Source: an uncultured virus (IMG/VR IMGVR_UViG_3300002498_000029) (lineage: Duplodnaviria; Heunggongvirae; Uroviricota; Caudoviricetes). From it: a stretch of 20,000 nucleotides of DNA. The DNA lies in the IMG/VR virus record IMGVR_UViG_3300002498_000029; one strand, 5' to 3'. Of this stretch, positions 1-20,000 are shown in pieces; positions within the stretch are counted from its first letter, which is position 1; each line of letters begins with the position of its first letter. Both the position numbers and the translations under genes were made by a program. Under the pieces are notes generated by a model, which had not been told where the DNA came from, ran no database searches, and was given only the letters and a program-made list of their open reading frames with translations.

Positions 1-1
1 T

Positions 2-1711
2 CTTGGATTAAAAATTCCTAGTACAATATTATATTAGGTATTAAATAATAGTAAATTTTATTATTATGATTCAAAAACAAAAGAGCTATCACTCGGTTGA
101 ACATCTGGATCATTAACAAATATATCATCATCAATATATAGTCAATCAATTATATCATTATATGATTATAGTGAATATAGTACTAATATAATGACAGCTA
201 TGTACTCTAATCCATTTGAGTCAGCTAGTTATATATTTTATAATGGTACACAAATAACAACTGGAACATCTACTACTAATTATATATATCCATATCACTA
301 TCAATATGTACCAGATAATAATATTCCAGTTGGACAATATATATTAGTATATCAATGGCAAGATACTAGTAGTAATTTTTATCCAATAACTTATCAAACA
401 ACAAAAGCTCAAGGGTTAGGATTAATACAAACATATTAGCAAGGTGATTTACATGTTAATGTTGAAAAAATAATATATTCAGCATCATATATGGATTAGT
501 AGACTGTTGGTATAATGTCCCCATTTAATAAACAAGTGATTTGTAGGGATAATAGTATATAGTTATCTTGAGAAAATGCATCATTAAACAGTTTTGATTT
601 AACTTATATATGAATAATACCAAGTGCATCATATAGTAATTTTAGATAGTATAACCCATATACTACATAGAGTATTGTAATATTATATTCTGGATCAGAT
701 GAATCTTATACTGCTAGTATAACTGGATATGATGATGGAGATTATTTATTAGTGTTTCAATCTAAAGATATATATAATAGTTATTCATATATATAGAATA
801 ATCAATATTATAACTAGTCATACACAAGAAATTCAAATTATTATTATGATATATTTAAACTAAAATATAGTGAAAGTGTGTTGTATAAATATGATACTCT
901 GATTCAAACTCCATATTATTACAGCTATACTGACACATCAAAAGCATTTACACCAGTAACCTCAACTAATCAAAATATACCATACCAATTAGCAACATCA
1001 TTTGGAAACAATAACCTATGGTTTTAGTATAATAAATATCCATTAGTAACTAATACCTATGTTACATATAGTGTAGCAGGGTAGTAGTATTATTTAGCAT
1101 ATAATAATCATTTCAGTGCTTTAACGTATATTAAAAAAAATAATAGAACATTAAGAGTTACTGCTAGTGTTGTAAATAATTGAAATTCATAGTCATATGG
1201 TAATATTGTATCAACTTGATTGCCAACAGACCCTACTACATATAAGTTCAATATTACAAATTGACCATTACCACAATAGACAGATACATGATTAGGGGCT
1301 ATTTATACTAGTCCATATTCATCATTAACACCATCTCAAACATATACATATAGTATATCTGGAAGTGATTACTAGTATGACATTACAATAGTATCAACTC
1401 ATAAATGATTTAGACCAAGATTTTACGCATATAAGATATATGATAGTTGAAGATATGCAATGCATCATGGAATGACACCGTTTGGTGTGTATCGTTATCC
1501 ATTTTACTTATATTATACTACTGATGGTTCTGACCCAAGGATAAGTTAGACTGTATATAGTTGTTCATATGATAATTCTGCAATATCTATTCCAACAGAA
1601 AGTGGTGACTATACTTATAAATTATATTTACCATAGCAAACTAGCTCAATTGCAGTGTCTGATATATTAACTAGTTCTTGATTATATACTATAAATTTTA
1701 TAAGGTAGTAA
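2..1711 (+). CDS. 5'-truncated Ser/Thr/Tyr-rich virion structural protein with a C-terminal chitobiase-C/FN3-associated (YYTTDGSDP) module
   Basis: Frame 2 has no TAA from position 2 to 1709-1711 but many in-frame TAG/TGA. It contains the supplied ORF 191..439. Motif LYYTTDGSDP lies near 1510-1540. Confidence 0.75.
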
Positions 1712-1716
1712 TATAA

Positions 1717-3267
1717 ATGGACAATATTATATATATAACTTCATCACAATATATTTATATTGATTCTGGATATAATTAGAATACTGTTGTTTATTATAAC
1801 ATAAATTCTTAGTTTGATCCAGATAATCAATCACAACAATATTCTAGTGGAATACTTATAAATTAGAATATTTTATTGAAAACTATAAACTTCAACAAAC
1901 TTACAGAATAGTATTCAGAAGTTTCATAGTTTCAATTTATACGATTATTACAAAATCCGTATTTATATTATACTGGTTCAAAATGATTTATAAATAAAAA
2001 TTAGGATAATGATGTAATAACAATATATACTGTTGATGGTAGTTATCCAAGTTTGATTAATGGAATAATATATGATGATTCAAAATATTTAACAACTATG
2101 ACATCATAGTAGTTATAGTTACTACAAATTAAAAATATTAGATATAATTCCATTGATAGTGAATTAATTTCGACTCATAGTGTTCCAGTGGCAACATCTA
2201 ATAAAGAATCTGGAATATATTTAACACCAGTAGAGATTGAATTATATTGTCCACTATCTGGTTCATCAGTTTATTATACAACAAATAGTTCTGATCCATT
2301 AATTTATGGTACAGATTATAGTGTAGAACCAAGAGTTCCTGTTCCAAAATATATTTATACTATTATAAAAACTATTGCAACTAAATAGGGGTGGAATAAC
2401 AGTTAGACTTCATCTTATTGATATTTTTATACTAATAAGTTAAATAATGTATAGTTTAATTATACTACTAGTATATATAATAATGATATATTATTACAAC
2501 TAAGTTAGCCAAACACCTCATCCATATATTATACTACTGATAATACTACTCCAACCACATAGAGTTTATTATATTCATAGCCAATATTATTAAATACAGA
2601 TATAACAGTAAAGGTTATGGCGTATAAGTATTTATGGTTAGATTCTAATATAACTTCATAGTCATATTCATTTAAATGCGAACAAGTATCTGCTAGTTAT
2701 TAGTCTGGTGAATATGAATAGCCAATAACTGTATAGTTATCTTCAATTACTTCTAATAGCATAATATTATATACACTAGACGGAACTTTTCCAGTTGATT
2801 CGGGAATTGAGTATTCAGTACCAATTTATATAACTAATAGTGTATAGTTAAATGTAGTTGCTTTAAGATTTGGATACTGGGCATCAACAGTGTCACAATA
2901 TGATTATACTATATCGTGGTCATATAATTATTATTCTAATGATTTTATTAATAATGAATAGTTATATACTTCACATTCAATATTGATAACAGGATCAACA
3001 GATTCATAGAGATATTGATTATATTATAGTAACCAATGAAATAAATTTTAGACCTCAAGTATATAGTATTATACAACAACTGGACAATTTAAAATAGTGT
3101 TATTAGATGATAAATATTTAAACTTATCATTTATTTCAACATCTAATTCGTATAAATTATCTTAGCCGATATATATTAATATAGATAATTTATCAGAATC
3201 AATCTAGACAACATCATCAGTATACAAATTAATAACATATACTGGTAATGTTTACACAACAGGATAA
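1717..3267 (+). CDS. Structural/adhesin-like protein with tandem chitobiase-C (CHB_HEX_C_1/Fn3-associated) repeats
   Basis: ATG 1717 to TAA 3267. Repeats: IYTVDGSYP, VYYTTNSSDP, IYYTTDNTTPTT*SLLYS*PI, IYYTLDGTFP..GIEYSVPI. Contains the supplied ORF 2188..2388. Confidence 0.8.
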
Positions 3268-3286
3268 AAATAGGAGACAAATATAA

Positions 3287-3967
3287 ATGGCAAAACCAAA
3301 TTTAACAGAAACAAGAGCCGAAATAACTACAGGTGGTATTATATCAGCATCACATATATCTAATTTATATGATGCATTAATTAGTGGGTCTAGTGATGAT
3401 AAATTTTTTAATGGAGTAACAATAGCATCAGATAAATTTGCAATGGCTAGATGCTCAGTTAATACATCCGGAATGGCTATTGGAGTTGTATCGTCAGCAG
3501 TTGGATAGAATTCATTTGCAATGGGCTATAACAGCGTAACTAATAATCCTGGTGAATTTGCTATTGGAGTGATCTCCCAAAAAAACCCCGAAGATATTTC
3601 TCAATTTACTGTTAACATTGGTTCATTGGGATTAGCCGTGGATGAAAAAGCCTATTACATGTTTGGACATGACTCAGTTGGATTACACGTTAACAGTCTA
3701 ACAATTGCATATATTAAAGCGAACGGCATTATGTATAATAGTTCCACACTTGATGACACCGCCACAAGCACATCATATTTTAATTATGATAGTATACTGG
3801 CCAATAATACTTTATATTCTGAAAGTGTATCATATTCGAGTGATGTCACCAAGCTTACCTTCACAATGAACCTAGACCAAGATAACCTTTATCTAAAATT
3901 AACTGGTCAATTTAGCACATATTATTTTTCAACAGTAAAAGTATAGATAATACAGTGTGATTATTAA
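3287..3967 (+). CDS. Putative tail fibre/receptor-binding protein with YadA-head-like (Hep_Hag) repeats
   Basis: AGGAG at 3272-3276 precedes the ATG. Supplied ORFs 3287..3508 and 3521..3946 join in one frame across a TAG. Repeats: SGMAIGVVSSAVG*NSFAMGYNSVT..GEFAIG. Ends at TAA 3965-3967. Confidence 0.65.
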
Positions 3968-4072
3968 AATCTTATGGACAATAATTAACGATATGCCAAC
4001 AATAACATACCTTCCAAACTTATATATTAATTATAAAATAAATGGCGGTAATATACTGTATAATAAATTAAT

Positions 4073-4852
4073 ATGATAAAATTAAAACAATATATATTAT
4101 AGTCAACACAAGGTCCAGCGGAAATAAATAAAGAATAGTTTATTAAATTATTCAAATAGAATTGTAAAAATATACACAATAAGTGGGATTATGTATATAG
4201 AGGTAGTAATAATACAAATTAGTTTATATACTGAAAACCCAGGCCTACAAAAAGAAAGTCATCGTGTATATCATAGACTTGTGTAGATAAATTTTATAAT
4301 TGATATTTATCTAATAGTAAAGATTGAGCTAATTATCCAAAAAGAGACAGTAGTATAATTTGTTCAACAGATGAATAGGTAGCAAAAAATTTTGGTTAGC
4401 AGGTATATATAGTTATACCATTTGATAATACTAAATGGGGAGTATGCATATAGACTGATTTATGAGATAGTTTTGAAGAAATAAATGAAATATATAATCA
4501 AGATGATGGTATTTTAAATTTTTCAAATTAGTTAAGATATATTATTGGTGATGTATATTATCCATAGCGAGTTTAGTAGGCATTTAATAATATTAGTAAT
4601 TGGTCATAGTTTTAGTTGTCAAAATTATATTAGTCGAAAATATATAAAGAATATTTATAGAATAAACATAAATATAAAACAATATGATAGTTTATTACTG
4701 TATTAATGTTACCATAGTTAAATAATTTTAAGTTAAGTTAGTAGCCTTGAAAATATAGTGTTAGAGAGGTTTGATCTTAGGGGCCATGTTTAATGATTAA
4801 GCATTCAATACAAAATGAAAAATTCGTATAGGAATTAATAAATAATGATTAA
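4073..4852 (+). CDS. Paralog family member 1 (MIKL leader; YRG/ICST/REVW motifs), possible ADP-ribosyltransferase-like protein
   Basis: MIKLKQYIL*...YVYRG...NFYNWYLSNSKDWANYPKRDSSIICSTD...VIPFDNTKWGVC...REVWS*GPCL. Clearly homologous to the genes at 5797, 6594 and 8082. The function is inferred. Confidence 0.8.
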
Positions 4853-5249
4853 ATTAAAGAATATAGTAATGGAAAAATTTGATTTATAGAGAATGAATAA
4901 CTACACCATTGTAAATACTTGTATTAATAATATTATATAGTATATTAAATTACATTTTAAGTTAAATAGAATATTTTATATTAAATATAATAATATTAAA
5001 ATAAATTAGAAAGATAAAATAGGGTGTAAATTATAGTTAACAATTACTCAATTGATACCACAAGATAAAATTGATAAAAATAAGCTAGTGTTATTAAATA
5101 AGTTAAATAATATTGAAATAGTATTTATTACTCCAACTGAAATACAATATAAATATAGTAATGTTAATAAAATTGATACTGATATTAAACAAATAAAATA
5201 CTAGATAATACAATATATAAGATAGATTTTAGATAAAATAAATGATTAA
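4845..5249 (+). CDS. Hypothetical protein with MIKL leader
   Basis: Starts MIKLKNIVMEK. ATGATTAA overlaps with both neighbours. Open to TAA 5247-5249. Confidence 0.75.
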
Positions 5250-5793
5250 ACTAAGATAGATAATACAATAGAAATTAGACTACATATAGTTTAATAGTCA
5301 AAAAATAATGTATGATAATACAAGTAAAGCTGTTGCATTTATAATTAATAGTGACAACGAAGTATATTATGAATGAGGTGGTTTACATTATAATCTTCAA
5401 GATAAATTAGCTACTGATAATAAATATGTTAAGTGAGATAATTTAGTTTATGGTAGAATATTCTTTGTAATTTATAATCCAGTTATAGTATTTTCAATAA
5501 ATACTTATAGAAATTTTACAAAAAAAATAATAAATTATTGTAAGATATTAAAATAGTAGTTTCCAAAAAGCAGACCATTATCAGATTGGTATATTGCAAT
5601 TGAATAGCAATGTATTGATTATAGAGCTAGATTAAAATTAATAAAGGCATAGTATTCAACTAAATTTACACAATTTTTAAAAAACAATAAATATTATTGA
5701 AGCCATATATAGTTATAGTTTTATGTTCCATTATTGACATTTGAATAGGATATACATAAAATATAGTAGTAGATTATAAAATTGGGAAAATAA
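5242..5793 (+). CDS. Hypothetical protein with MIKL leader
   Basis: Starts MIKLR*IIQ*KLD. Open to TAA 5791-5793 under the recoded table. Confidence 0.75.
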
Positions 5794-5796
5794 ATA

Positions 5797-6594
5797 ATGA
5801 TTAAATTAAAACAATTAATATTATAGACACAAAGTCATAAAATTGAATTAACGAAGTAGTAGTTTAGATAGTTATTTAAATAGAATTGTAAAAATATTAA
5901 ATATATAGATGATTGCGTATACCGTGGATGATGAACATCAGAACAATTTATTAAATTTCAATCATCATATGCTGAAAGAATTTCTAGATGAGTACATGGT
6001 GGAGAGATGGACTCTTATTATAATTGATATTTATCTACATCAGATGATTGAAAAGAATTTCCAAGAAGAAATAAGAGTTTAATATGCACAACTGATATTG
6101 CTAATGCTAGTAATCGAGGTAAAATATTTTATGTATTTCCATATGATAATATATAGTGGGGTATATGCCCAAAAAAAGATATTTGATTTTCATTTGATAC
6201 TTATTTATCTACTCTTACTAATACTAATTTTGTTGGTGCTGGAGTTTTATCAGATATAATGGAATAGTTATCTAAATTACAAAATTATCCCAAATTAACA
6301 CAGGATGATTTCAATTATACTACGTTTAAATAGAAATAGTTCTATTGAATTGATCAAATTTTAAATACATCAGTATTTAAAAATAATGAATAGTATACAC
6401 TTGAACAAAAAAATAAACTAATATACTATTTCTTTAAACAATTATTTAATCCACAAAGTAATTAGTTTTTAATAAGCACTAAACCATGAGATTATGAAAA
6501 TAGAGAAGTGTGATCATAGGGACCATGTTTACTGATACAATATGGTAAATAGACTATGGATTATTTAAAATAGTTAATAGAAGAAAATAAGTAA
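5797..6594 (+). CDS. Paralog family member 2, possible ADP-ribosyltransferase-like protein
   Basis: MIKLKQLIL*...CVYRG...YYNWYLSTSDDWKEFPRRNKSLICTTD...VFPYDNI*WGICP...YENREVWS*GPCL. TAATG overlap with the next gene. Confidence 0.8.
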
Positions 6595-7355
6595 TGATAA
6601 AATTAAAACAATTAATATTATAGTATAAATCAGCTACATCTGAAATATCTAAGTAGTAGTTTATATAGATGTTTGAAGATAATTGTTATAATATTAAACA
6701 TCTAAATAATTATGTATATAGGGGCATACCGTCTAATGCGCGGTATCTATATTTTAATTCTAAGAAAACCACTATATAGCGACCGTCTTCAATTTAGCAT
6801 TCACAAAATATTTTAAAGACGGAAAGCTTTTATAATTGGTATATGTCTAATTCTTAGGATTGAAAAAATTATCCTAAAAGAAATAAAAGTCTAATATGTA
6901 GTACTTCTACAAAATATAATAGATTATACGGAAATAGATATATAGTTATTCCATTTAATAATACAAAATGAGGCATATGTCCAGCGGATGATTTGTGAGA
7001 TAGTTTTCATAATAAAATACTCTTTACTGATTTATTACAATAGTTGTCTTCTCATGACTTATTAAAAGATATATATCCATATTTAGATTAGAATAGTATT
7101 AATTCAATTAATATTAATGATTTAGATCCAATTAAATATTCTGAATTATTTAAAATATTTGATAGATATTATGGTAAAACTAACTGATAGAAATTTAAAT
7201 GGTTTTGAAATCCTCAAAATACTGGTTTTTAGGTAAGTTAGACTCCATGAGAATATGATAATAGATAGGTTTGAACTTAGGGGTCTTGTATTTTATTTAA
7301 ACAGAATATATATAATATAAAACTTTTAGAATAGTTAATATAGGAAAATAATTAA
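6594..7355 (+). CDS. Paralog family member 3, possible ADP-ribosyltransferase-like protein
   Basis: MIKLKQLIL*...YVYRG...FYNWYMSNS*DWKNYPKRNKSLICSTST...VIPFNNTKWGICP...YDNR*VWT*GSC. Confidence 0.8.
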
Positions 7356-8089
7356 TGATTAAATTAAAATAGATAATAATCAAATAGGGTATAAATGATC
7401 CTAATATATTTAAAGCAATATTTATCTTAGGTAGTCCAGCTAGTGGCAAATCAACATTAGCTAAAAAAATATTAGGGAGATAGAAATTAAAACAACATGA
7501 TGTCCATAATATGTATTTATCGTTTAGCCCTACTGGATTAAAGTATTTAAATATAGATGATGTATTCTAGAGATTATTATTAACTACTAAATCTAAAACA
7601 AATTTTAACTAGCTTACAGAGGAATAGTATAAATAGTTAATATCTGCACCAGATTCTAAATATAATAGAGCTAGTAGATTAACTAATATAAGAAGAAATA
7701 ATTATGTATAGGCTAGACTTGGATTAATTATTGATAAGACTGGAGCTAATGCAGATAAAATAGCAGATCAAGTATAGTAGTTATAGTATTTAGGATATTA
7801 GTGTTTTTGTATTTATATTAGTTCAGATTTATAGGAAGCAATTACTAGAAATATGAATAGGTTATAGAGAAGATTAAAAGAATAGGATATTGTTAATTGT
7901 TGAACTAGAGTTAATTAGAATAAAGAATAGTTGCAATAGATATTTGGATATAATAATTTTTATAATTTTATTAATAATAAATATTATTAGTAGCAAATAT
8001 CTTTATTGAATAAAAAAATATCTGCATTTTTAAATAAACCAATAACTAATAATATTGCATTAAATTGGATATAGAGTCAATATGATTAA
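7355..8089 (+). CDS. P-loop kinase, zeta-toxin/AAA_33-like phage family, with MIKL leader
   Basis: *GINDPNIFKAIFILGSPASGKST (Walker A), NIDDVF*, RLGLIIDKTG (Walker B-like) and AITRNMNR. Resembles the EGxxDPxIFKAxFLAGGPGSGKS family of large phages as I recall it. Confidence 0.85.
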
Positions 8090-8861
8090 ATTAAGATAGC
8101 TAATATTATAGGCTTCAATACCATATAATAAAATATCAAGTAAAAAATTTTAGTAGTTATTTAATACTAATTGTAAAAACATAACAAGTTTAGATCAAGT
8201 AGCATATAGAGGTATGCGTAATATTGGTAAAACAGGGTTATTTATACCGACTAATTCAATTAGAAAATCTTATAAACATAAAAATTATAAGACGGATTCT
8301 TTTTATAATTGGTATTTATCTAATAGCCCTAGTTGAAAATAGTATCCTAAGCGAAATAAAAGTATTTTTTGCATGACTAATTATAATGATGTAACCGGTT
8401 ATTATGATCCGACTGAGCAAAAAATATATATTGTGATACCATACGATAATGTATAGTTTGGAGTTTGTTCAGAATTTGATTTAGCCCTCTCTTTTAAAGA
8501 CTTTAACGTCGTTGGATTAAGTAGGTGGTTATTAAAGTTATTATAGGATTTATAGTTGTTGTTTATATTAGAATCAACAGATACTATACAAGGAATATAG
8601 ACTATGTCAAATACAATAAAAAATGATTAGACTATTGATAAATCTTATTATTCATATGTCTTTTAGCGAGTTAAAAAATATAATACATTTAAAAATTTTA
8701 TATTAACAACATTTAGTCCAAGATATAATTAGTTTAAACTAACAACTGATTTGAGTTCATTTAATAATAATTAGATTTGATCTTAGGGGCCATGTTTACT
8801 ATTACAACATACTGATTAGAATATAGAATATTTACAACAGCTGATAACTAAAAATACTTAA
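8082..8861 (+). CDS. Paralog family member 4, possible ADP-ribosyltransferase-like protein (more diverged)
   Basis: MIKLR*LIL*...VAYRG...FYNWYLSNSPSWK*YPKRNKSIFCMTN...VIPYDNV*FGVC...NNN*IWS*GPCL. Ends at TAA 8859-8861. Confidence 0.8.
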
Positions 8862-8887
8862 ATAATATTTAAAAAAATAAAAGAATG

Positions 8888-8904
8888 ATATATTTATATA
8901 TATA
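8888..8904 (+). promoter_or_regulatory. Putative phage promoter motif ATATATTTATATATATA (copy 1)
   Basis: Lies in a short intergenic gap just before ATG 8907. An identical 17-mer occurs at 11888-11904, also intergenic. Confidence 0.45.
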
Positions 8905-8906
8905 AT

Positions 8907-9308
8907 ATGAAAAAAGCTATTAAGTTTAAGATATATAAGAAACTAAGAGAAATAAAGAATAGAAAATTAAATATTTTATCAGTATAGATGAAATAGAGAA
9001 TGACTATACCATATAACAATTGAAGAAAACATGTATTTGAAAGAGATAATTATCAATGCCAAATATGCGGCAGATCTCATATAAGATTATAGGCTCATCA
9101 TATTAAATCATTTAAGTTATTTCCAAATATAAGACTCGATATAAATAATGGTATAACATTATGTTCAGCTTGTCATTATATGTTTCATAAAAAATATAGT
9201 AAAGTAATATTTCCAAATATAACTACTATATGATAGGATAAATTAATAGTTAAAAAATTTAAGGATAAAGTAAATAATGAAAAAAAATTAGTTGAAATAG
9301 TTAATTAA
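8907..9308 (+). CDS. HNH endonuclease
   Basis: YNNWRKHVFERDNYQCQICG...L*AHHIKSF...DINNGITLCSACHYMFH shows the CxxC, HH, N and CxxCH pattern. The conserved W is encoded by TGA. Confidence 0.9.
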
Positions 9309-9726
9309 AGAATAGATCAAAAAAATATTATTATAGTAGCCAATCAAATCTGATAAATCTGCATATAATACTAGAGTAATGTTTAGTGCAGGCGGTGGTA
9401 AAGAATTTGGTAAATGAATGATGGAATAGCTAAATAGAAGTTTTTTTGAAAAAAATATAGCTAATACCAAAGTATTACAATAGTATATAAATTAGCATAG
9501 AGATTAGATACAAAATGTAACTGATTCAACTATTAAATATTTTTTAAATTAGATTTAGCAAATAATCAATAGAGCCTAGATTAAGAAATCTAGATGTAGA
9601 CCAGATTAGCAACATATTTGTAATAAATATGAAAAAGAAAAAAATTAGTCGTTACAAAGTTATTTTTATAATTTTTATTTAGCAAGTATTGGTAAAGGTT
9701 CAATAGACTCATATAAGAAGTACTAA
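9277..9726 (+). CDS. Hypothetical protein with MKKxELK leader
   Basis: Starts MKKN*LK*LIKE*IKKILL**. Open to TAA 9724-9726. Confidence 0.75.
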
Positions 9727-9731
9727 TAAAT

Positions 9732-10466
9732 ATGAAAAAAACATAGTTAAAACAAATAATTAAAGAATAGATTAAATATATATTACTATAGAATAAGAGA
9801 TATGATCATATAAGTAGAAATAACTATAGATTAAAAATGTTAAAATTACCATAGAATAGTAAATTTAAATCTACAAAATAGGATGTTTTAGCTATTTTAA
9901 GTTCATAGTAGAATATTAAGCAATCTAAATATGAATTAGACGATATAGTTATGCTAATATTATTATATTAGATAATTGACTATCCTAAAGATTTATATTA
10001 GAAATAGTGGTTTAAATCATATTCTCCAGAATTTCAAAGACAATTATTTTTATATATGTAGAATATGTTTATATATTATTTTAAAAAGGTATAGAAAACT
10101 ACGAGTAGAGGATTAAATACTACTAGTATGACAGATATGACATAGATTATTAAATTAGTTTTATCTAATATATAGGTATAGCTTCCAATAACATATTAGC
10201 AAATATTTGAGGCAGTAGAAGATTATGATTGAAATCTTAGAGATTTATAGATAAGACATAACGGTACTTTGTAGAATTGAAAAATAAATCTACAGTTTTA
10301 TATTTCTGGTCATGCTATAAATAACTAGAGGTCAAAACTACATAAAGATGATAGAATTATTCATTGAAATAATAAATTAATATATATATATTTATTATAG
10401 CCTGGCGTCAAAAACCAAAAACAATTTATAGTTTTTACATAGAAAAACTAGAATCCATTTGGATAA
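9732..10466 (+). CDS. Hypothetical protein with MKKxELK leader
   Basis: Starts MKKT*LKQIIKE*IKYILL*. Open to TAA 10464-10466, with a TAATG overlap into the next gene. Confidence 0.75.
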
Positions 10467-10750
10467 TGATATTTATAAATAAACTATTACGTGATAATAC
10501 TGGTGTATCAAGTAAAAGATTCGTTACATTAGTAACATTTATACTTATATGTATAATAGCTGTAGTAGACTTATTTACACCGTTAACAATTAGTTAGTTT
10601 ATATTTAATGGTTTAATGTATTTATGTTCAATTGGGTTAGGAACAATATTAGCATAGGATGTTTTAACTAAAAACAAATATAATAAAAATAATAAATAGT
10701 AGGAGATACCATAGTTAAATGAAGAAACAATAGCTTAGACAACTAATTAA
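10466..10750 (+). CDS. Small two-transmembrane protein, holin-like
   Basis: SSKRFVTLVTFILICIIAVVDLF and FIFNGLMYLCSIGLGTILA are two hydrophobic helices, followed by a charged tail. Confidence 0.6.
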
Positions 10751-10958
10751 ATAGATTTACTAGTAGGTAATTAAATAGTATGATAAATAGACCCCTTAGG
10801 ATGATAAATATATTTATAATATAATTACAAAAGTTATTACTGATGGTAGAAATTCAAATTATCCATTAGCAATGTGTCTTAGAACCGATTTTGGAAATAC
10901 ACATTGATTTGACATAAGTCTAGATAAATTATACTAGATTGCAAAATTATTTAAATAA
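10719..10958 (+). CDS. Small hypothetical protein with MKKxELR leader
   Basis: AGGAG at 10701-10705. Starts MKKQ*LRQLIK*IY**VIK*. Ends at TAA 10956-10958. Confidence 0.7.
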
Positions 10959-10979
10959 TTATAAAGGAAATAAGAAAAA

Positions 10980-11447
10980 ATGAAAAAATCAGAACTAAAA
11001 AAATTAATACAATAGGCCTATCAAGAAGTGATATTATAGGCGTAGGACAATGAAGAGGATATAGACTTAAGTATATTAGATTAGATGTTTGACGATCCAA
11101 ATATTAGATATACTAATGCAGATTGCTCACTAATATGCATAGCAAAACATCCAAAATTCGGTGATATGCCAGTATACAATTAGACTATTAAAGCTGATAG
11201 AGATATTCAAAAGGCTGGAATATAGAAGTTTGTTACTACAGCTGGTAGTGGATTTAAATTTAAAGCTAAAAAGTTTAATAGCGCATAGTAGTTAATTAGT
11301 AATGCAAAGTAGCTGTGTAAAAATATTAGAATAAAAAAAGATGGTATTAGTATGAAGGATCTTGCTACTAAATTAAATAAATGGTATGATAAGATGATAT
11401 TTGATGCTGCTAAACAATCTGGGATAGATTTAAGAAGAAGTAAATAA
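10980..11447 (+). CDS. Hypothetical protein with MKKSELK leader
   Basis: AAGGA upstream. Starts MKKSELKKLIQ*AYQEVIL*A*DNEE. Ends at TAA 11445-11447. Confidence 0.75.
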
Positions 11448-11449
11448 CT

Positions 11450-11800
11450 ATGAAAAAATCAGACTTAAGACAATTAATAAGATAGATGACAGAACAATAG
11501 TTTAGTAAAATAAATAAAACGAGTACTAGTATTGTTAAGTAGTAGCCAACTATGCGTGGTTTTGCCGGAGATGATGATGGATTTATTGACGATGATACAT
11601 TATATAATTAGGTAATACCGAATGCAATTAAATATGCTATACATGACGCTATTCAATATAATGATAAAATATGAGATAGATTAGTAATTAGTATAAAAAC
11701 AGATCTATAGGAATACGGAATTACTGATTATAAAGATGTAATATCATAGGAAAAATTATTAACTAAATTGTAGTAGTACGGATAGAATCTTATTTATTAA
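11450..11800 (+). CDS. Hypothetical acidic protein with MKKSDLR leader
   Basis: Starts MKKSDLRQLIR*. Ends at TAA 11798-11800 and is followed by a terminator hairpin. Confidence 0.75.
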
Positions 11801-11825
11801 AAATAGCAATCAAAATATATAACTT

Positions 11826-11869
11826 AAGAGTAATTAATATCTAAAAATATTGATTACTCTTTTTATTTT
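11826..11869 (+). terminator. Rho-independent terminator
   Basis: 15-bp stem AAGAGTAATTAATAT / ATATTGATTACTCTT (one G-U pair) with a 6-nt loop, followed by a T-rich run, just after a TAA stop. Confidence 0.75.
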
Positions 11870-11887
11870 AAATATTTTTTTACTTCA

Positions 11888-11904
11888 ATATATTTATATA
11901 TATA
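11888..11904 (+). promoter_or_regulatory. Putative phage promoter motif ATATATTTATATATATA (copy 2)
   Basis: Lies between the terminator and the AAAGGAAG + ATG 11927 start. Identical to 8888-8904. Confidence 0.5.
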
Positions 11905-11926
11905 GTATAGAGAAAGGAAGTATAAC

Positions 11927-12547
11927 ATGCCAAGAATAGATATGTCAAAGGTTAAAACAACTGATGATGTTGCACAAATATTAACATAGTCTAAGCCACA
12001 AAAAATATATATGTCACCCAAAGAAGCTTATACCCAAAGAAAATAGGGATAGATATGGTTATAGGATGGAAAATAGTGGACTATTAAAAATGGATTACGT
12101 ATAACAACTAATTTAATAAATAATAAGAATTAGACATATAATAGTTGAACTTGTCCAAAATGTAATAAGTTTATGTCACATTGGTTAGATAAAAAGATTA
12201 TGAAGACGGCTGGCCATTGTTTTGACTGTGATATTAAAATGTAGTCATAGATGAGATTAAATGGTACTTGATAGTAGTATAATTAGAATATAAAAAGATA
12301 GAATTTAAAATCTTATTTAAAAGATCAAAAATAGCAAATGTTATAGTTAATAAAAAGTGTTAGTAATAAAATACAATTTATACAGAATTCAGATGGTGGT
12401 ATATAGTCTTGGCATGTAAGTTAGTAGACTATTGCTAAAACTATGAATAATTTAAATAAACAAATATAGTAGATTGATTAGATGCTAAAAACCATACAAT
12501 AGTATTAGATATAGCATAAAATAGTTAAATAGAATGAAAACATATAA
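11927..12547 (+). CDS. Putative Zn-binding phage protein (CxxC...CxxC) with coiled-coil C-terminus
   Basis: RK*G*IWL*DGK*WTIKNG, CPKC, HCFDC, KM*S*MRLNGTW**Y. AAAGGAAG upstream. Confidence 0.8.
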
Positions 12548-12707
12548 AATAAAAAATTTAGGACTACTTATACAAGATAATATTGCAACTCTATTATCAA
12601 GTAATTGTGTGTTTATTGCTTAGGATAATGATATTATTTTATAGTTTGATACATAGTTATAGTTAATAGATTACATAAATTAGAATGATATTTAGATAAA
12701 TGATTAA
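12534..12707 (+). CDS. Small hypothetical protein
   Basis: 57-aa frame that fills the gap and overlaps both neighbours (ATGATTAA at its 3' end). Confidence 0.55.
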
Positions 12708-13125
12708 ATTACGTAATATTATACTATAGATATTTGGATAGAGTACTAGAAGCATTACAGTAAATACTAAATAGGTCATATTTAACAAATATCCTAAATA
12801 TTGATATAGCTAGTTTATAAATACCCTAAAGCAAATAATACCGGTAAGTAATAAAAATACGTATGAGTTAGACTAGATTTTAAATAAGTTATTAAATAAT
12901 GATGATCCATATAGTTATTACTTACATATAGTATAGTAGTATAATAATATCAAATATATATATTTTTTAATTCAATTTAACAATAACATAAACATCGAGG
13001 CTAGAAAATATCATTAGTTTCAACAATGGTTTTTTTATATCAATGGTAAAAAACATATGAATAAATTTCAAACAAAAAAATATTTAAGTAAAATAATAAA
13101 GGATTTAAATAATAATGGCAAATAA
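12700..13125 (+). CDS. Hypothetical protein with MIKL leader
   Basis: Starts MIKLRNIIL*IFG*. Ends at TAA 13123-13125. Confidence 0.7.
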
Positions 13126-13465
13126 TACAACAAAATACTTTTTAAGTGAATCCTATAGAAATCCAAATATAGTACAGGGTTCTGCCCCAATGGATCTATA
13201 GAGATTTCCGCAATATCAAGCGTTAAATGCATTAGTTGGTATTGGTGTAGGTAGATAGTGAACTGCATCGTCTATTTCACAACCGGTTTATGCAATACAA
13301 GCTATAACAGATACAACATTTACAGAATTAGTAGATGGAACTACAGATATTATTGAAATAGCAACTACCTTAGAAATATTGGGCCAGGGGGTTATATATG
13401 GTAATTTTACTACAGCGTCTATATCAGCTGGATTAATTTGTGCGTACTATAAATTACAGGAATAA
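13115..13465 (+). CDS. Small beta-rich putative virion protein
   Basis: MANNTTKY...VYAIQAITDTTF...GVIYGNFTTASISAGLICAYY. Ends at TAA 13463-13465. Confidence 0.7.
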
Positions 13466-13475
13466 TTAAACTATA

Positions 13476-14090
13476 ATGATAGGTATAGGACTTTGGCTTA
13501 GAAATAGAGTATTAGGTGGATCAGCTTTATTTAAAACTTGATTAACCTCTTGATATACAACTAAGAATAACGATACAATTTTAACTAATAAAGTAGATGA
13601 AACCTTAAATGCTCATCAAGAAGACTTTATATGCGGTAATATGGTAGATACTAATTATAAATTATTTATTAGTACATCTATTACTAGTATAACATATAGT
13701 GGGTCTGGAACATTTAGTGTAAGTGGAAGTTATTTTGTTACTTGTTCAGCTATTGGTTCTATATATGAATTATATGCTTATACTGGATCTGATTTAGTTG
13801 GTCATTATCCTATATGTGAATCTAGTGGTATTAATATATATAATATTGCTCAAAATAATTATCATGCTAAAATATATTATGGTACTGTTACAGCATCTAG
13901 TGCGCAAGCTACTTCTTTTTGAACTGGTTTACAATTGTAGTATAATCCTTATCAGAATGGTGCTCAGTATTCAAATTAGAGTATTATTATACCAGCTAGT
14001 GGTAGTGTATCGGCTATTGGCCAAGCATTAACACATGTAGATGGTAATTGGATAATGAGATTGGGACAAAGTATTAATTTTGATGATTAA
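13476..14090 (+). CDS. Putative virion structural protein (MIGIGL start; partial LamG-like YPxxExSG motif)
   Basis: Extends the supplied ORF 13641..13922 in both directions across TGA/TAG. Motif LVGHYPICESSGINIYNI. Confidence 0.7.
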
Positions 14091-14108
14091 TAAAGAGAGA
14101 ATTGAATA

Positions 14109-14696
14109 ATGATACAAGCAACATACGATCAACTTAAAACAATAGCAACTCGCAAATCATATAAATGATTTACAGATATATACGATTTAAACGTATGGGG
14201 TATAAGAAATTCAAGTAGAATAGCTAATGCCTTTGATGATACTTTAGCCATAGCATATATAGATGCCAATAAAAACAAAAGAATATTTACATGCCCAATG
14301 ACAGTTGACCCAGGATTATATTACTTAAAGAACCCATTAAACCACAAGGGTTGTGCAATTATACCAGAAGGACAATACTTAGGTTTATGAATACTAGGAC
14401 TACATAAAGGTTATACTGCATTAGCCCAAAGAAAAGCTATTAAAGTATTTAGAGATAATGATAAAAATAATTAGTTGGGTGGGCAATTACAAACAATCTA
14501 GTAGCTAGGCGGGTTTAATTTACATAGAGCTTTATAGAATGGAATAACTAATACAGTAGATAAATTTAGTGCTGGTTGTCAAGTAGTACAAATACCAGAA
14601 GATTTTAATTATGTAATATCACTAGTAAAGCTTCAAGACAAATATATTAAATCTAAAATAGTATCTTATACACTTATATCAGAAAGGGAACTTTAA
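14109..14696 (+). CDS. Putative peptidoglycan-acting enzyme/endolysin, YkuD (L,D-transpeptidase)-like fold
   Basis: LNVWGIRN..NAFDD..TVDPG..GCAIIPEGQY..GLHKGY..VFRDND..FNLHRA..VDKFSAGCQV. The H...SAGC pattern resembles the YkuD catalytic motif. The function is inferred. Confidence 0.65.
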
Positions 14697-14702
14697 TAAT
14701 AA

Positions 14703-16004
14703 ATGATAACTTCATCAATATAGATTTGAAACAAGTTAAATATAGTAGGTAATACTAGTGATCTTCCATAGATATGATTATCTGATATACAAGATTCAAT
14801 ATATTATGATTCAGATTATCCATATAAATGAAATGTATTCTAGATGGATATTTAGTATTTAAGATTATTTATAAATGATGGGTATTCTGGAAATATTAGT
14901 TCTACATATGAATCAGGTAGTGATTATACTAGTGTAATATTTAATCATTTAAAATAGTGTTATATATAGAGACCTGTTGCATTAAGTGCTACTAATATAA
15001 CTGATGTTAGCTTTACTGCTAATTGAAGTAGTGTTGTTGGTGCTACTAGTTATTAGATTGATATTGCTACTGATAGTTTATTTAGTAATATTATACAAAG
15101 AATTAGTTGTGGTAATGTGATATTATATAATGTTACTGGGTTAACTAGTAATACTACTTATTATTATAGAGTGAGAAGTATTAGTAGTGGTGGAGTTAGT
15201 GGAAATAGTGAAGTGGTAACACAACTTACATACGCCACTGGAGCGCCTGCTTACTTTGCTAGAATGACAACTCAAGGTGATACAACATATAAGGCCAAAA
15301 TAAGTAGTTTTATTGGTGCATTAGAAAGTGCAGGTGTTTGAGCATCATTAGATTCATTACACTTATTTGCCAATAAGGACGATTACACAGATAATATACC
15401 GGCTTCATTTATAAATATGATAAACCCAACTGATACTATAGCGGCTAGAACAGGAGTTAGTGGTTCAAATTTGACGTATACTACAAATCAGGGGTGGTTG
15501 GGAGCCTCCAATGCTGCTATTGATTTAAATCAATTATTAACTAATAGAGCAAAATATAGTTTAAATAGTGGCTCTATGTTTGTCTATGTTTATACAACCA
15601 CCGCAGCAGGATATGTGGCATAGATTGGAACTTATATTGGAGCATCTCAAGCATCTATAATGGATTGTAGAGTTGATGGTGATAAGATGAGACTTTACCT
15701 CAATGGTGGTATGTCTGATACCGTGAATGCATTACCTGGTGCCGGAGTTGGGCTTTTCTCTCTTAATAGGACTGCTGCAAATAACATAGATGTTTACAAA
15801 AATGGTACTTTCGTGGAGTCTCTGGCAAATAATAGCAGCGCAATCCCAACCGGTAATGTCTATGCATTGGCAGCTAATATAAACAATGTCATCGCCAATA
15901 CAGCTACTGGTCGGAGAATATCTCTATGTGGATTTGGTGCACAAATGGATGCTACCAAGCAAGCTGCACTCTATGCGGCATTTATGACATATCTAACAGG
16001 ATAA
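14703..16004 (+). CDS. Virion protein with an FN3 domain and a C-terminal lectin/LamG-like module
   Basis: Joins supplied ORFs 15117, 15417 and 15660 in one frame. FN3 signature ATNITDVSFTANW(TGA)SSVVGATSY*IDIATD...VTGLTSNTTYYYRVRS. Confidence 0.8.
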
Positions 16005-16038
16005 TATACATAATTAATCATACTGGAATATATAACTA

Positions 16039-18786
16039 ATGCAAAAAAACGATAAATACATTGTAGACATAAAAACATATGATAAATCACTAACGGATAG
16101 TGGTTCATTTCCATATACTCATGGTTTAACTACATAGTAGTCTGCTAGAGTAGTAGCTAAAATGAAACTAGAAGATGATACCTTTATTAATATTAGTGGA
16201 TCACAATAGTTAGTACCAGCTAATGGATCATTAGTAAGAGTATTATCATTTGATTTTGAACCACATAAAGGTTATGATACTATTTTAACTATGAATGATT
16301 ATGATACAGGTTCTGGTAATATGTATAGTAGTAGAGTTATAAAATATTAGTATGGATCAATAAATGTTTATAATTAGAATAATATTAGATTAACTTCTAG
16401 TATATTATCATATACTTATGGTAGATAGGATTCTAATACTATTCCATTAAATACTAGAGGTAATTGTTATGTTTAGTTAGATACATTATTTAGTGTTAAA
16501 GGTAATATTATATTAGGAACTACTTCTAGTAATTATAGTATTAGATCATTAAGAGGATTTAATGTCAATTTTAGTTATAGTGGTAGCACAGATAGAACTA
16601 ACTTTATGAGGTAGTTGTCATATTTAAATGATATTAAATCAACTTGATCTTATTCATAGTTATGCCAATTTAGTTGGGGTATGTATTATGGTAGAGTAAT
16701 AACTGATCCTAGTGCTAGTGTATAGACTGGCAGTGCAAGATTATTATACAATCAAATTTAGAATTTAGACTTAATACCATATACTAAATTTTTATGGTAT
16801 GGTTAGGCTGGTACAGTTGTTAGTCAAAGTAGAGTTAGTAAAATATATAGTATAAATACTGGTAGTGTAGTAGACGGTACAAGTTCTGGTATTTATAGAC
16901 CATATTATGCTGGTACTATTGCTCCAATTTAGAAAAATAATTTATTAGTAGACTATTCTTCATCTCAATATTATTATATAAGTCATTCAAATATATCATT
17001 TGGAACTACTTCTCCTTGAACATTAGTTTCAGTTATTGGTTGACATGGACCTAAAGTATATAATGCTAATGGAGTATAGACCCAATTAGTATATGGTAAT
17101 AATGGTTCAGCAATAAATTTATCAGTATCTGGTAGTACCAAAATTCAAATATCATCATCAACAGTAAATAGATAGTTTTTAACTAATACTTCTATTAAGA
17201 ATTATCTTGCAACTAGAGCTATGATAGCAATTACATATGCTGGTGATGTGAGTGGATCTACTACTACTTATTTTAATGGAGTTAGCCAATCAGTATCTAC
17301 AGGTTCTAGATATGCTTTTGACTTTAGTGGATTCTTAAGTGGAACAGGTACTAGTACTAATAATTATTTAGGTAGATATTATTATCACCATATTATTAGT
17401 AAATCTTTATCACAAGATGAAATAACTGCTCATTATAATGTACTTAGATCATATTATCCTTAGATTTAGTCAGTAAATATAACTACTCAAAGTTGATCAA
17501 CTCATAATTTAGGTGTAGTTTCAGATAGAAGCGGAAGTGTTATAAATAATGTTAATTGAACAAGTTCTGTAGTTACTAGCGGAGTATGTAGTTCATCACT
17601 ATTTGACGATTCTGATTTATATACATAGTCTGGAACAACATAGGTAATTGATGGTATTGGTTATTTTACAGCGTCAAATAATACATATATTACAAAATCA
17701 TATACTGGTCATTCATTATTGAATAATTATTATTTATTATCAGCTAAATGTTAGTCGTGAGATACTGGTTCTGCAAAATTTATAATAGGAACAGTTTCAT
17801 CATCTATATTTGTACCAACTGCTAGTAATATACATTCATATTATATAAAAGCTAATACTGCTAATAGTTCATTTGGTATTGGTGGTGTAGATTATTTAAG
17901 CGGATCATTTAGCAGTATGTCAATATCAAGAATAGGCTGAAACGACATAGGTAACTTATACTCATACTTAATAACAACAGGTTCATACACTCACTATGAT
18001 GCTTTAAAATAGTGTGCAGCTTGAAGATATTATAATGATGATGCAAATACCTATGCATTATATGGTAAACTATATAATAAATATGCTAAAATGTTAATCT
18101 AGTCCTACCCACCATTATGTACATCTCCTACTTCAGCATCATATGTACCTATGTATCAAATACCATTATTAGATGGTACTGGTATAAATACTTTAAAAAC
18201 ATATTCAGGTTCAACATTAAGAGTATCAAATTCACTATACTGATCTTCATCAATAAATGATACTAATACTACAGGATTATCTTTAATTGGATCAGGATGA
18301 TGTGATGCTACTGGATCATTTAGACATGCTACTCAAAGATGTTACTTATGATCAAGAAATGTAACTTCATCAACATATTTGCCCATAACTTCATCAATAG
18401 GATAGAATAGACCATATATAATTTGAAGAAGTTCTAGTTTTATTACTGATGGAGATGATTCAACAACTTAGGGATATGCTATAAGATTAGTAGATACAGG
18501 TATAGATTATAATATAATAAATAATTATACTAGTAGTTAGTGTAAAGATAAATTAAATAGAATAACATATGATATAGAGGGTTTAACTGCTAGCTTAATG
18601 ACTTATTATAATAGTAGTGTAAATGGATCAATTATACCAACATAGATAAACTTTAGGAACTTTAGTAGTTCATTATATACAATATAGCAAATACAAGCAG
18701 CTAGTCCTAATTTAACTGGTAGTGCTGTTTAGCAAGCTAACTATTGATTAGTACAAGTTAATAATAGAATAGATTTACAAGGGTAA
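16039..18786 (+). CDS. Large (~915 aa) virion/tail protein with a LamG-like segment and an interrupted Fib_succ_major-like domain
   Basis: No in-frame TAA over 2.7 kb. LamG-like ITY..TYFNG..KSLSQDEITAHY. Fib_succ_major-like P*I*SVNITTQSWSTHNL, AAWRYYNDD..YGKLYN, NTTGLSLIGSG, YLWS, GYAIRLV. Confidence 0.75.
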
Positions 18787-18795
18787 TAATATAAA

Positions 18796-19329
18796 ATGGG
18801 AATAAAGATAAACGATACAACTGTTACGTTAAAAACTATAGCAAGGACTTCAAATGGATCATTAATATTGCCCGTTAGAACTTCTGATGGATATACCTAC
18901 CAAATATTTAATTCCGGAAGTACTGTACTAAAGGTTAATTAGACTGTATATGTAAATTTTTATATTACAGGTTCAGTTACTTCAAGTATTGCTACTGGTA
19001 GTAATATATTATTAAATGTAAGCTCATATTCAATAACAGCATCAACAGCAGATAGTTCAGCATCTCTTAGTTACCCATCAATATCACAATCAACATCACC
19101 TACTACAACTATAACATATACTAACTCAATAGCTACAGCATCAATATATACACCTACTACAAATAGTACTATATATTATAGTACATAGAGTTTAACGCCA
19201 AATACATCATCAAACTTGTATACAGCTCCAATTTATTTCAGTCAATCTTGTATTATTAGTGCAATATCATATAGAGATTATTGAGTAGCATCAACTATAA
19301 CAACTGCATCATGCGTAATTTAGGAATAA
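18796..19329 (+). CDS. Ser/Thr-rich structural protein with a C-terminal chitobiase-C module
   Basis: TIYYST*SLTPNTSSNLYTAPIYFSQSCIISAISYRDYWVAS. Ends at TAA 19327-19329. Confidence 0.75.
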
Positions 19330-19337
19330 TAATATAA

Positions 19338-20000
19338 ATGTCAACAACCATAAAAACATCACTAAATTTAAACCATATTAATAGTACTACCAAATAGTGA
19401 GATAATACTCATCCTTCTTTTACTAGTAGTCCAATAGTAGTACAATATATATCATTACTTAAGAAACAAGGGTGTGTAAATTTACCTAGATTAAATAGTT
19501 AGTATTTATTACTATTATTACAAAGTATGTATCTTGATACTAGTATAAGTGGAGATATATATATTACTAATTATTTAGATCCTAATATATCTGTTATTGA
19601 TATTATAGCTGCTACTGGTAATGTTAGTGGTAGTAGAGTAGAACAGATTAGGTATTATATAAATATATTAGCAAATAGACAAAAAATTGGTGTGTATATA
19701 AATAATATTGTTGTATATTATCCTGCTGTTTTCACAATTGCAGCCGAAGCAAGTTTCGGCTTCAGGGTAAGACTATCTGAGCTTGGCAATGTAATCTCAA
19801 CTGGCGACGTAAAAATTGGGACATCAGATGTCCCAACTGGCACGGAAATAAAAATCAACGCTACTGATGATTATGCCACAAACACATCTGCGATAGAAAC
19901 CACAATCTATGTGTTGGGTGGCACTGGTGGCGGAACGATTGTGTTTCCAAAAAAGTCAAAAATACATTATCTATACATTTCCAGCCCAGGTTTAGGAGCT
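19338..20000 (+). CDS. 3'-truncated putative structural protein
   Basis: ATATAAATG start context as at 1717 and 3287. The frame stays open to the window end across TAG/TGA. Confidence 0.65.

Follow-up and report, generated by a model that had tools for sequence, protein, structure and literature searches.

Whether a tailed phage can read the amber codon TAG as glutamate (Glu) is the question raised by a 20,000-nucleotide stretch of DNA from an uncultured member of the Caudoviricetes (IMG/VR record IMGVR_UViG_3300002498_000029), which was analyzed in full and is referred to here as the window. A first-pass annotation of positions 4073 to 12547, made from the letters alone, had proposed that TAG in this region stands for Glu and not for glutamine (Gln), and this preference was borne out by every comparison with homologs outside the window. 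On the strength of these comparisons, it is very probable that TAG encodes Glu. With equally high confidence, TAG is predicted to belong to a one-stop code in which TAA terminates, TAG is the commonest Glu codon, and TGA is the commonest tryptophan (Trp) codon. The window extends beyond what the first-pass annotation had emphasized, as TGA is reassigned to Trp too, TAA is the sole stop codon, and TAG supplies most of the Glu codons in each block of genes. Genes are named below by the position of their first base.

Gene layout and stop codon usage

The window has a guanine-plus-cytosine (G+C) content of 26%, and all of its genes lie on the + strand. When all three stop codons were applied, six open reading frames (ORFs) of at least 80 residues were found, a single one of which reached at least 150 residues. 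Reading through TAG while keeping TGA as a stop improved the ORFs, though they were still short. With TAA as the sole stop, 19 ORFs of at least 150 codons (5733 codons) tile the + strand, and under the same reading no ORF of at least 150 codons was found on the - strand of the window. The gene count is 26, two small genes included, with a coding fraction of 97.7% of the window. TAA terminates all 25 complete genes (25/25), in each case at the first in-frame TAA, and short gene overlaps of the phage-operon type are present. Genes with homolog families have lengths similar to those of their homologs, and no gene requires read-through of TAA. The AGGA-like motifs upstream of the genes are weak and give no clear indication of the host.

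In-frame TAG occurs 293 times per 6335 codons (4.63%; 24 ORFs counted) and is present in 26 of 26 genes. Set beside 110 GAA and 15 GAG codons, TAG accounts for 70% of the putative Glu codons, while TGA (n = 79, with 29 TGG) accounts for 73% of the Trp-type codons. TAG makes up 63%, 74%, and 64% of the Glu codons in the three gene blocks, and TGA makes up 70 to 81% of the Trp codons. The window contains 24 TAG-TAG tandems, and the base 3' of TAG follows the same distribution as the base 3' of GAA or AAA, indicating no special suppression context. The pattern of in-frame TAG and TGA is far beyond chance, and throughout the genes of the window both codons are translated, one for one, as sense codons.

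Positions 4073 to 12547 were also found in independently built contigs (four runs from one sample, which may be the window's own source) with 0 differing letters; thus, the recoded sequence is not an assembly artefact. These four were the only public runs found to hold window DNA, the sample being labelled a hydrocarbon metagenome (2013) and the contig depth approximately 3 to 5, and no RNA run was listed among the sequencing runs found. This is not a gut sample; nearly all published recoded phages are from the gut.

A stored copy of the ATPase encoded at 7355 (P0001) sits on a 256,585-bp contig, placing the window as 20 kb of approximately 257 kb. Exact strings from the window had no match in the viral, metagenome, or genome contigs searched, and the phage records gave no close match. 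Judged by its homologs, the window is assigned to a tailed-phage genome of approximately 257 kb with T4-like and jumbo-phage relatives. The ATPase matches proteins of Kyanoviridae (T4-like) pelagiphages and of jumbo phage Atu_ph07, and a family of four paralogs matches Atu_ph07, RsoM2USA, SCTP-2, and an uncultured 484-kb phage. Matches to gene 14109 are in crAss-like and other Bacteroides phages, and those to gene 11927 are in Flavobacterium phages; window proteins also match PHROG families.

Residues at TAG and TGA columns

The four paralogs (genes 4073, 5797, 6594, and 8082) share a REVW motif, the Glu codon of which is GAG in gene 4073 (codon 232, position 4766), GAA in gene 5797 (codon 237, position 6505), and TAG in genes 6594 (codon 225, position 7266) and 8082 (codon 231, position 8772). 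Each of these codons is in frame, just as the first-pass annotation had described. Paralog alignments of this kind had been offered as evidence for Glu. The pairs are real, but alone they are unable to separate Glu from Gln: among all pairs of the four paralogs, TAG stands opposite lysine (Lys) 25 times and opposite Glu and Gln 13 times each. The accompanying caveat, that some TAG codons align with Gln, likewise concerns real pairs, but six of the 13 trace to two variable polar columns, namely, leader position 6 and the C-terminal LKxLI. As TAG faces Glu and Gln equally often in these pairs, the decision rests on standard-code homologs outside the window.

In all homology queries TAG and TGA were masked as X, so the searches were unable to lean towards Glu. 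For the ATPase, homologs were taken from the best 80 viral loci of an alignment-seeded scan, in which fragmented same-code matches may rank lower (tblastn). Among 60 distinct standard-code homologs, Glu is found in 59 at the position of TAG codon 11 and in 55 at that of codon 72. Position 160 is acidic in most (32 Glu and 21 Asp), as is position 149 in all (42 Asp and 18 Glu), and the other TAG columns, apart from position 192 (see below), are variable polar positions or gaps. No TAG column of the ATPase is dominated by Gln, the top Gln count being 12 of 60.

A profile search with the paralog family returned 3069 proteins at an E value of ≤0.001 from 1.84 billion representatives. The profile was built from 146 sequences, after removal of P0023 and P0024 (fragments of a window gene produced by mis-calling) and of two further entries below 200 residues. 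Its REVW column has a Glu emission of 0.67, and across 85 aligned sequences of the family this Glu is invariant, which makes it one of only four invariant columns. In gene 11927, TAG codons lie opposite the KEG, E/D-VW, K-x-E-x-E, and EE/DD motifs of homologs P0007 to P0009, and three TAG columns have a profile emission for Glu of 0.58. Gene 14109 was compared with homologs 43 to 74% identical to it, which have Glu in 16 of 22 at TAG-132 and in 20 of 22 at TAG-143, the remaining two TAG columns being variable. Close homologs of the same gene carry Trp in 21 of 22 at TGA-20 and in 17 of 22 at TGA-94, and where Gln is conserved the gene has CAA. By these alignments, TAG is placed on conserved Glu columns in four unrelated families and TGA on conserved Trp columns.

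The first-pass annotation had suggested tabulating the consensus residue at TAG columns in profile alignments. A Codetta-like test was performed for four families of the window, in which masked window proteins were aligned with per-family profiles and log emission probabilities were summed for each codon. Each profile column was counted once, as the four paralogs are not independent, and only positions with a posterior of 9 or * were used. For the 48 distinct TAG columns Glu scored best, followed by Lys (-5.3 log10 units), Asp (-12.4), and Gln (-16.3), and Glu was also best in each of three families tested separately. As a control, 34 of the 36 sense codons with n of at least 5 were recovered, CAA as Gln and GAA as Glu included; the two errors were ATG and TGG, both called Leu. 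Columns in which Glu is the top residue (emission of at least 0.30) hold TAG five times in the window and GAG, GAA, and AAA once each. Columns with Gln on top hold CAA twice and TAG never, and those with Trp on top hold TGA 12 times and TGG twice. Among the distinct TAG columns in which one residue reaches an emission of at least 0.30, that residue is Glu in four, Asp in two, and Lys in one. Mean emissions for Glu and Gln were 0.166 and 0.067 at TAG columns, 0.147 and 0.061 at GAA/GAG columns, and 0.100 and 0.086 at CAA/CAG columns; the emission profile of TAG thus resembles that of GAA/GAG and not that of CAA/CAG.

PHROG profiles, an independent library, were applied to six proteins and gave summed scores of 605.7 bits for Glu, 598.2 for Asp, 587.7 for Lys, and 587.6 for Gln, with the Glu reading scored top in five of the six. 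Without TAG, Glu would make up 1.97% of residues. Reading TAG as Glu gives 6.6% Glu and 2.7% Gln, and reading it as Gln gives 7.4% Gln. Under TAG = Gln the net charge would be +6 to +22 for nearly all proteins of the 4073-13125 block, against near neutrality under TAG = Glu. Composition is not uniformly decisive.

Besides the paralog tally given above, a number of observations weigh against TAG = Glu. Lys is the runner-up in the likelihood test, and the paralog family alone gives Glu a lead of only 0.4 log10 units. Just two conserved-Gln columns served as the negative control, and five TAG occurrences fall on columns in which Asp is the top residue. In the ATPase, the TAG at position 192 lies on a Lys-conserved column (42 of 60), and TAG = Glu gives this protein 10.7% Glu, compared with 2.2 to 8.2% in its homologs. 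Within the 20-kb window no tRNA was found by ARAGORN, no Rfam family matched at an E value of ≤1, and no synthetase or release factor was found. The residue at TAG is read from conservation only, and a minor share of other decoding is possible.

An ambiguous TAG, translated mostly as Glu but to a substantial extent also as Gln or Lys, is improbable. Such decoding could arise from a tRNA with anticodon CUA (tRNA-CUA) that is mischarged by glutaminyl-tRNA synthetase (GlnRS), or from a Glu-tRNA-Gln-like intermediate that is partly amidated. It would account for the occurrence of both Glu and Gln opposite TAG in the paralog pairs and for Lys as the second-best residue at TAG columns. A 2025 preprint reports that 28 of 29 phage tRNA-CUA inserted Gln in cell-free extracts of Escherichia coli and that one inserted Ala (PMC12636597); GlnRS thus tends to capture CUA anticodons. 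However, TAG occupies a Glu invariant in 85 sequences and the near-invariant ATPase columns, at which heavy misincorporation would be costly, and it provides 63 to 74% of the Glu codons in each gene block. The mean Gln emission at TAG is also close to that at GAA/GAG and not to that at CAA/CAG.

That TAG encodes Gln throughout, the reading published for TAG-recoded phages (NCBI table 15), is very unlikely. The 13 pairings of TAG with Gln among the paralogs are 3.3 times the expectation, CAG to TAG is a single transition, and Borges et al. give Gln as the only residue seen at phage TAG (10.1101/2021.08.26.457843). Three stored proteins from this DNA (P0001, P0023, and P0024) carry Gln at every TAG; this, however, is the assumption of a gene caller and no evidence. 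Gln trails Glu by 16.3 log10 units in the likelihood test and by 18 summed bits with the PHROG profiles, and TAG lies on Glu-conserved columns in four families but on neither of the two Gln-conserved ones. The reading would imply 7.4% Gln and 2.0% Glu, with a Gln content above the homolog range in the paralog, 11927, and 14109 families. The least credible alternative is that TAG encodes Lys or a derivative such as pyrrolysine in a methanogen-rich hydrocarbon sample, a proposal favored by the runner-up position of Lys (-5.3 log10 units), the one TAG on a Lys-conserved column, and the hydrocarbon metagenome label of the sole runs with window DNA, but opposed by conserved TAG columns that are mainly acidic (four Glu, two Asp, one Lys), by the extremely basic proteins it would make of the already basic 4073-13125 block, by PHROG scores 18 bits below those of Glu, and by TGA = Trp together with T4-like, Bacteroides, and Flavobacterium phage homologs, which point to a bacterial and not an archaeal setting.

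Leader peptides and the packaged-enzyme analogy

The features of the window discussed in this study are as follows, with TAG and TGA counts given for each gene.

1..20000, + strand: whole window; 26 genes, with TAA as stop, TAG read as Glu, and TGA read as Trp
4073..4852, + strand: paralog 1, phrog_12810-type, putative ADP-ribosyltransferase-like fold; MIKLKQYIL-TAG leader; 22 TAG, 7 TGA; REVW Glu is GAG at 4766
4845..5249, + strand: small gene; MIKLK leader with GAA (4872) as codon 10; 6 TAG
5242..5793, + strand: MIKLR-leader gene; TAG at codons 6 and 10; 13 TAG, 3 TGA
5797..6594, + strand: paralog 2 (the protein used for the structure model); 14 TAG, 9 TGA; REVW Glu is GAA at 6505
6594..7355, + strand: paralog 3; 16 TAG, 7 TGA; REVW Glu is TAG at 7266
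7355..8089, + strand: P-loop ATPase/kinase-like gene with MIKLK leader; AAA_33 / Zeta_toxin-like below Pfam cut-offs; phrog_12810 positions 260-463; 21 TAG, 1 TGA
8082..8861, + strand: paralog 4; 15 TAG, 2 TGA; REVW Glu is TAG at 8772
8907..9308, + strand: HNH endonuclease; 4 TAG, 2 TGA
9277..9726, + strand: MKK-leader gene (MKKN-TAG-LK-TAG-LIKE-TAG); 14 TAG
9732..10466, + strand: MKK-leader gene; 22 TAG, 3 TGA
10466..10750, + strand: small hydrophobic protein, 94 amino acids; 6 TAG
10719..10958, + strand: fifth MKK-leader gene, 79 amino acids; leader codon 12 is TAG; 8 TAG
10980..11447, + strand: MKK-leader gene (MKKSELKKLIQ-TAG); 9 TAG
11450..11800, + strand: MKK-leader gene (MKKSDLRQLIR-TAG); 10 TAG, 1 TGA
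11927..12547, + strand: Cys-rich (CPKC...CFDC) protein, function unassigned; 24 TAG, which make up 92% of its Glu codons; 2 TGA
12700..13125, + strand: MIKLR-leader gene; TAG at codon 10; 8 TAG
14109..14696, + strand: endolysin-like protein (phrog_3000 / phrog_33083), the fourth test family, outside 4073-12547; 4 TAG, 2 TGA

An apparent 513-bp gap at 10466-10958 consists of two small overlapping genes, those for the 94-residue hydrophobic protein and the fifth MKK-leader protein. Homologs 52 to 74% identical to gene 14109 occur in standard-code viral contigs of approximately 40% G+C (loci L167 to L170) that have no other gene in common with the window, and no tRNA was found at these loci. From this distribution, gene 14109 seems to be moving horizontally between unrelated phages; its more distant relatives are those in Bacteroides phages. 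In the search for relatives with the same code, a scan seeded with the gene 14109 protein alone recovered none.

Eight genes (starting at 4073, 4845, 5242, 5797, 6594, 7355, 8082, and 12700) open with M-I-K-L-[KR]-x-[LI]-[IV]-x-E, and five (9277, 9732, 10719, 10980, and 11450) open with M-K-K-x-[ED]-L-[KR]-x-[LI]-I-x-E. These 13 leaders of 10 to 12 residues end in [LI]-x-E, the bodies behind them are unrelated, and the closing Glu is mostly written as TAG. The first-pass annotation had read leader codon 10 as GAA at 4872 and TAG in most sister leaders, and this is so: GAA is found in gene 4845 and TAG in genes 4073, 5242, 5797, 6594, 8082, and 12700, with TAG at codon 11 in gene 7355. The contrast it drew between MKKSELK (10980) and MKKN-TAG-LK (9277) or MKKT-TAG-LK (9732) is likewise present. 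In standard-code homologs of the paralog family, [LI]-x-E occurs within the first 13 residues of 124 of 146 proteins, compared with 1 to 34 of the 146 for control segments of 13 residues taken from other parts of these proteins. In 86 of the 124, the leader Glu is at position 9 or 10.

In form, the window leaders match both the capsid targeting sequence of T4 and the site cut by its prohead protease, gp21. This site is L/I-X-E, with residues 8 and 10 governing processing (PMC9026906; PMC3012670), and Asp at position 10 blocks processing in T4 (PMC9026906). No prohead protease was found in the window. If the T4 analogy holds, the last residue of the leader would have to be Glu, and the 4073-13125 block may encode a set of proteins that are carried inside the head and enter the host on ejection.

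The four paralogs (4073-4852, 5797-6594, 6594-7355, and 8082-8861) belong to the large phrog_12810 family, the function of which is unassigned. An AlphaFold model of paralog 2 had a predicted local distance difference test (pLDDT) score of 82.6, and an all-against-all structure search with this model returned mostly chains of the ADP-ribosyltransferase fold, with Arr on top at a Z score of 5.9, followed by diphtheria-type toxins, PARPs, and tRNA 2'-phosphotransferases, all at Z scores of <6. Foldseek returned nothing at an E value of ≤0.001 from the PDB, and PDB sequence searches with genes 14109 and 7355 and the paralog profile gave no real match. The model permits a weak assignment to the ADP-ribosyltransferase fold. 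Invariant residues of the family include R91, D128, and E237; with these residues and their leader, the paralogs resemble the packaged T4 enzyme Alt, and the REVW Glu, encoded by TAG in two of them, may be the catalytic Glu.

Decoding, relatives, and known codes

If TAG is Glu, it would be read by a Glu-charged tRNA with anticodon CUA, either a derivative of tRNA-Glu accepted by the glutamyl-tRNA synthetase (GluRS) of host or phage or one served by a phage-borne synthetase, and TGA would be read by tRNA-Trp(UCA). A window protein of 250 residues contains approximately 12 TAG and 3 TGA codons. With some 15 reassigned codons per 250 residues, read-through should be nearly complete, which implies that release factors either do not act at TAG and TGA or are strongly outcompeted there. 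The dominance of TAG would fit a long-established reassignment under AT pressure, in which GAG to TAG enriches AT and the third base of TAG is unable to drift to A because TAA is the stop codon.

Three scenarios could produce this code. The one we would place first, though it falls short of an even chance, is a host with TGA = Trp that lacks release factor 2 (RF2) and a Glu amber tRNA carried by the phage. In the second, a somewhat less probable alternative, the phage would impose both changes on a standard-code host. The third, in which the code is the host's own, is the least probable. No gene of the window can be translated by the standard code, which may mean that the code is native to the host; that TAA-only termination with TAG = Glu and TGA = Trp is native to a bacterial host not yet described, and not a late switch imposed by the phage, is a tentative idea that we consider rather unlikely.

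Proteins from other assemblies point to relatives with the same code. P0002 to P0004 are 51 to 68% identical to the window ATPase and carry Gln at Glu-conserved columns, and P0002 and P0003 end exactly at the position of the window's TGA. From these features same-code relatives are taken to exist, the Gln in P0002 to P0004 being the rendering of TAG by a code-15 gene caller. In the public collection, P0001 holds 182 of the 244 residues of the ATPase and is cut at the first TGA, and gene 8082 is stored as two fragments, P0023 and P0024, with TAG as Gln and a cut at TGA. Searches seeded with entries of the P0001 type inherit wrong Gln residues. A DNA pattern of TAG before GxNDPxIFKAIF had no match in the viral contigs or genome contigs searched, and the best 80 loci of the alignment-seeded scans contained only standard-code homologs, at 26 to 35% identity. 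A looser TGA/TAG pattern for the paralog motif gave 91 stretches, none of which encodes a paralog relative, and these were rejected as chance matches.

Codes known from phages differ from that of the window in several respects. Borges et al. give TAG to Gln and TGA to Trp as the only changes observed in phages with a code unlike that of their host, on the rationale that GlnRS and tryptophanyl-tRNA synthetase (TrpRS) readily accept suppressor tRNAs, and describe TAG as concentrated in the late genes of recoded gut phages (10.1101/2021.08.26.457843). Al-Shayeb et al. (2020) rendered phage TAG as X (PMC7162821), a 2026 survey of jumbo phages used codes 11, 15, 90, and 91 only (PMC13037316), and a Dutch-cohort study treated TAG- and TGA-recoded contigs as separate groups (PMC9610469). 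Full-text literature searches, limited to main texts, found no report of a phage or bacterium that reads TAG (UAG) as Glu.

Code 15 phages (Lak, crAss-like, and others) resemble the window in low G+C content, in-frame TAG, TAA as the preferred stop, and genes fragmented by callers; however, their TAG is Gln, whereas that of the window aligns with Glu, and NCBI table 15 keeps TGA as a stop, whereas the window has TGA in frame 79 times, including 12 times at Trp-conserved columns. Code 4 phages (the Agate and Jade clades) and table 4 bacteria share TGA = Trp with the window, but table 4 keeps TAG as a stop, and the 293 in-frame TAG codons of the window lie in ORFs that tile only when TAG is read through. 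In the surveys compared, each published recoded phage has one reassigned stop; the window has both TAG and TGA. The concentration of TAG in late genes also differs from its presence in 26 of 26 window genes, although only 20 of approximately 257 kb were seen and standard-code early genes are possible elsewhere.

The first-pass annotation had noted UAR as Glu in some ciliates and in Blastocrithidia, in agreement with NCBI tables 30 and 31, the sole listed codes with TAG = Glu. Table 31 (the Blastocrithidia nuclear code), under which TAA and TAG may also terminate a gene, shares both TAG = Glu and TGA = Trp with the window. However, tables 31 and 30 (the latter from peritrich ciliates) are eukaryotic nuclear codes in which TAA also encodes Glu, whereas in the window TAA ends 25 of 25 genes, and its gene content, operon layout, and homologs all mark a tailed phage.

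Compared with known stop codon recoding in phages, three features are new: Glu at TAG, the reassignment of both TAG and TGA, and TAA as the sole stop. Over the 20 kb seen, the pattern is that of a complete, genome-style reassignment, unlike the late-gene recoding of gut phages. Gene callers limited to codes 11, 4, and 15 mistranslate such genomes; as the window's own proteins are stored, approximately 5% of residues are wrong and most proteins are truncated. A one-stop-codon E. coli has reportedly been engineered in the laboratory, and the window would be its natural counterpart. TAG = Glu would break the rule that phage recoding yields only Gln or Trp, and it implies a GluRS/tRNA pair tolerating the CUA anticodon, which would be of interest for orthogonal translation systems.

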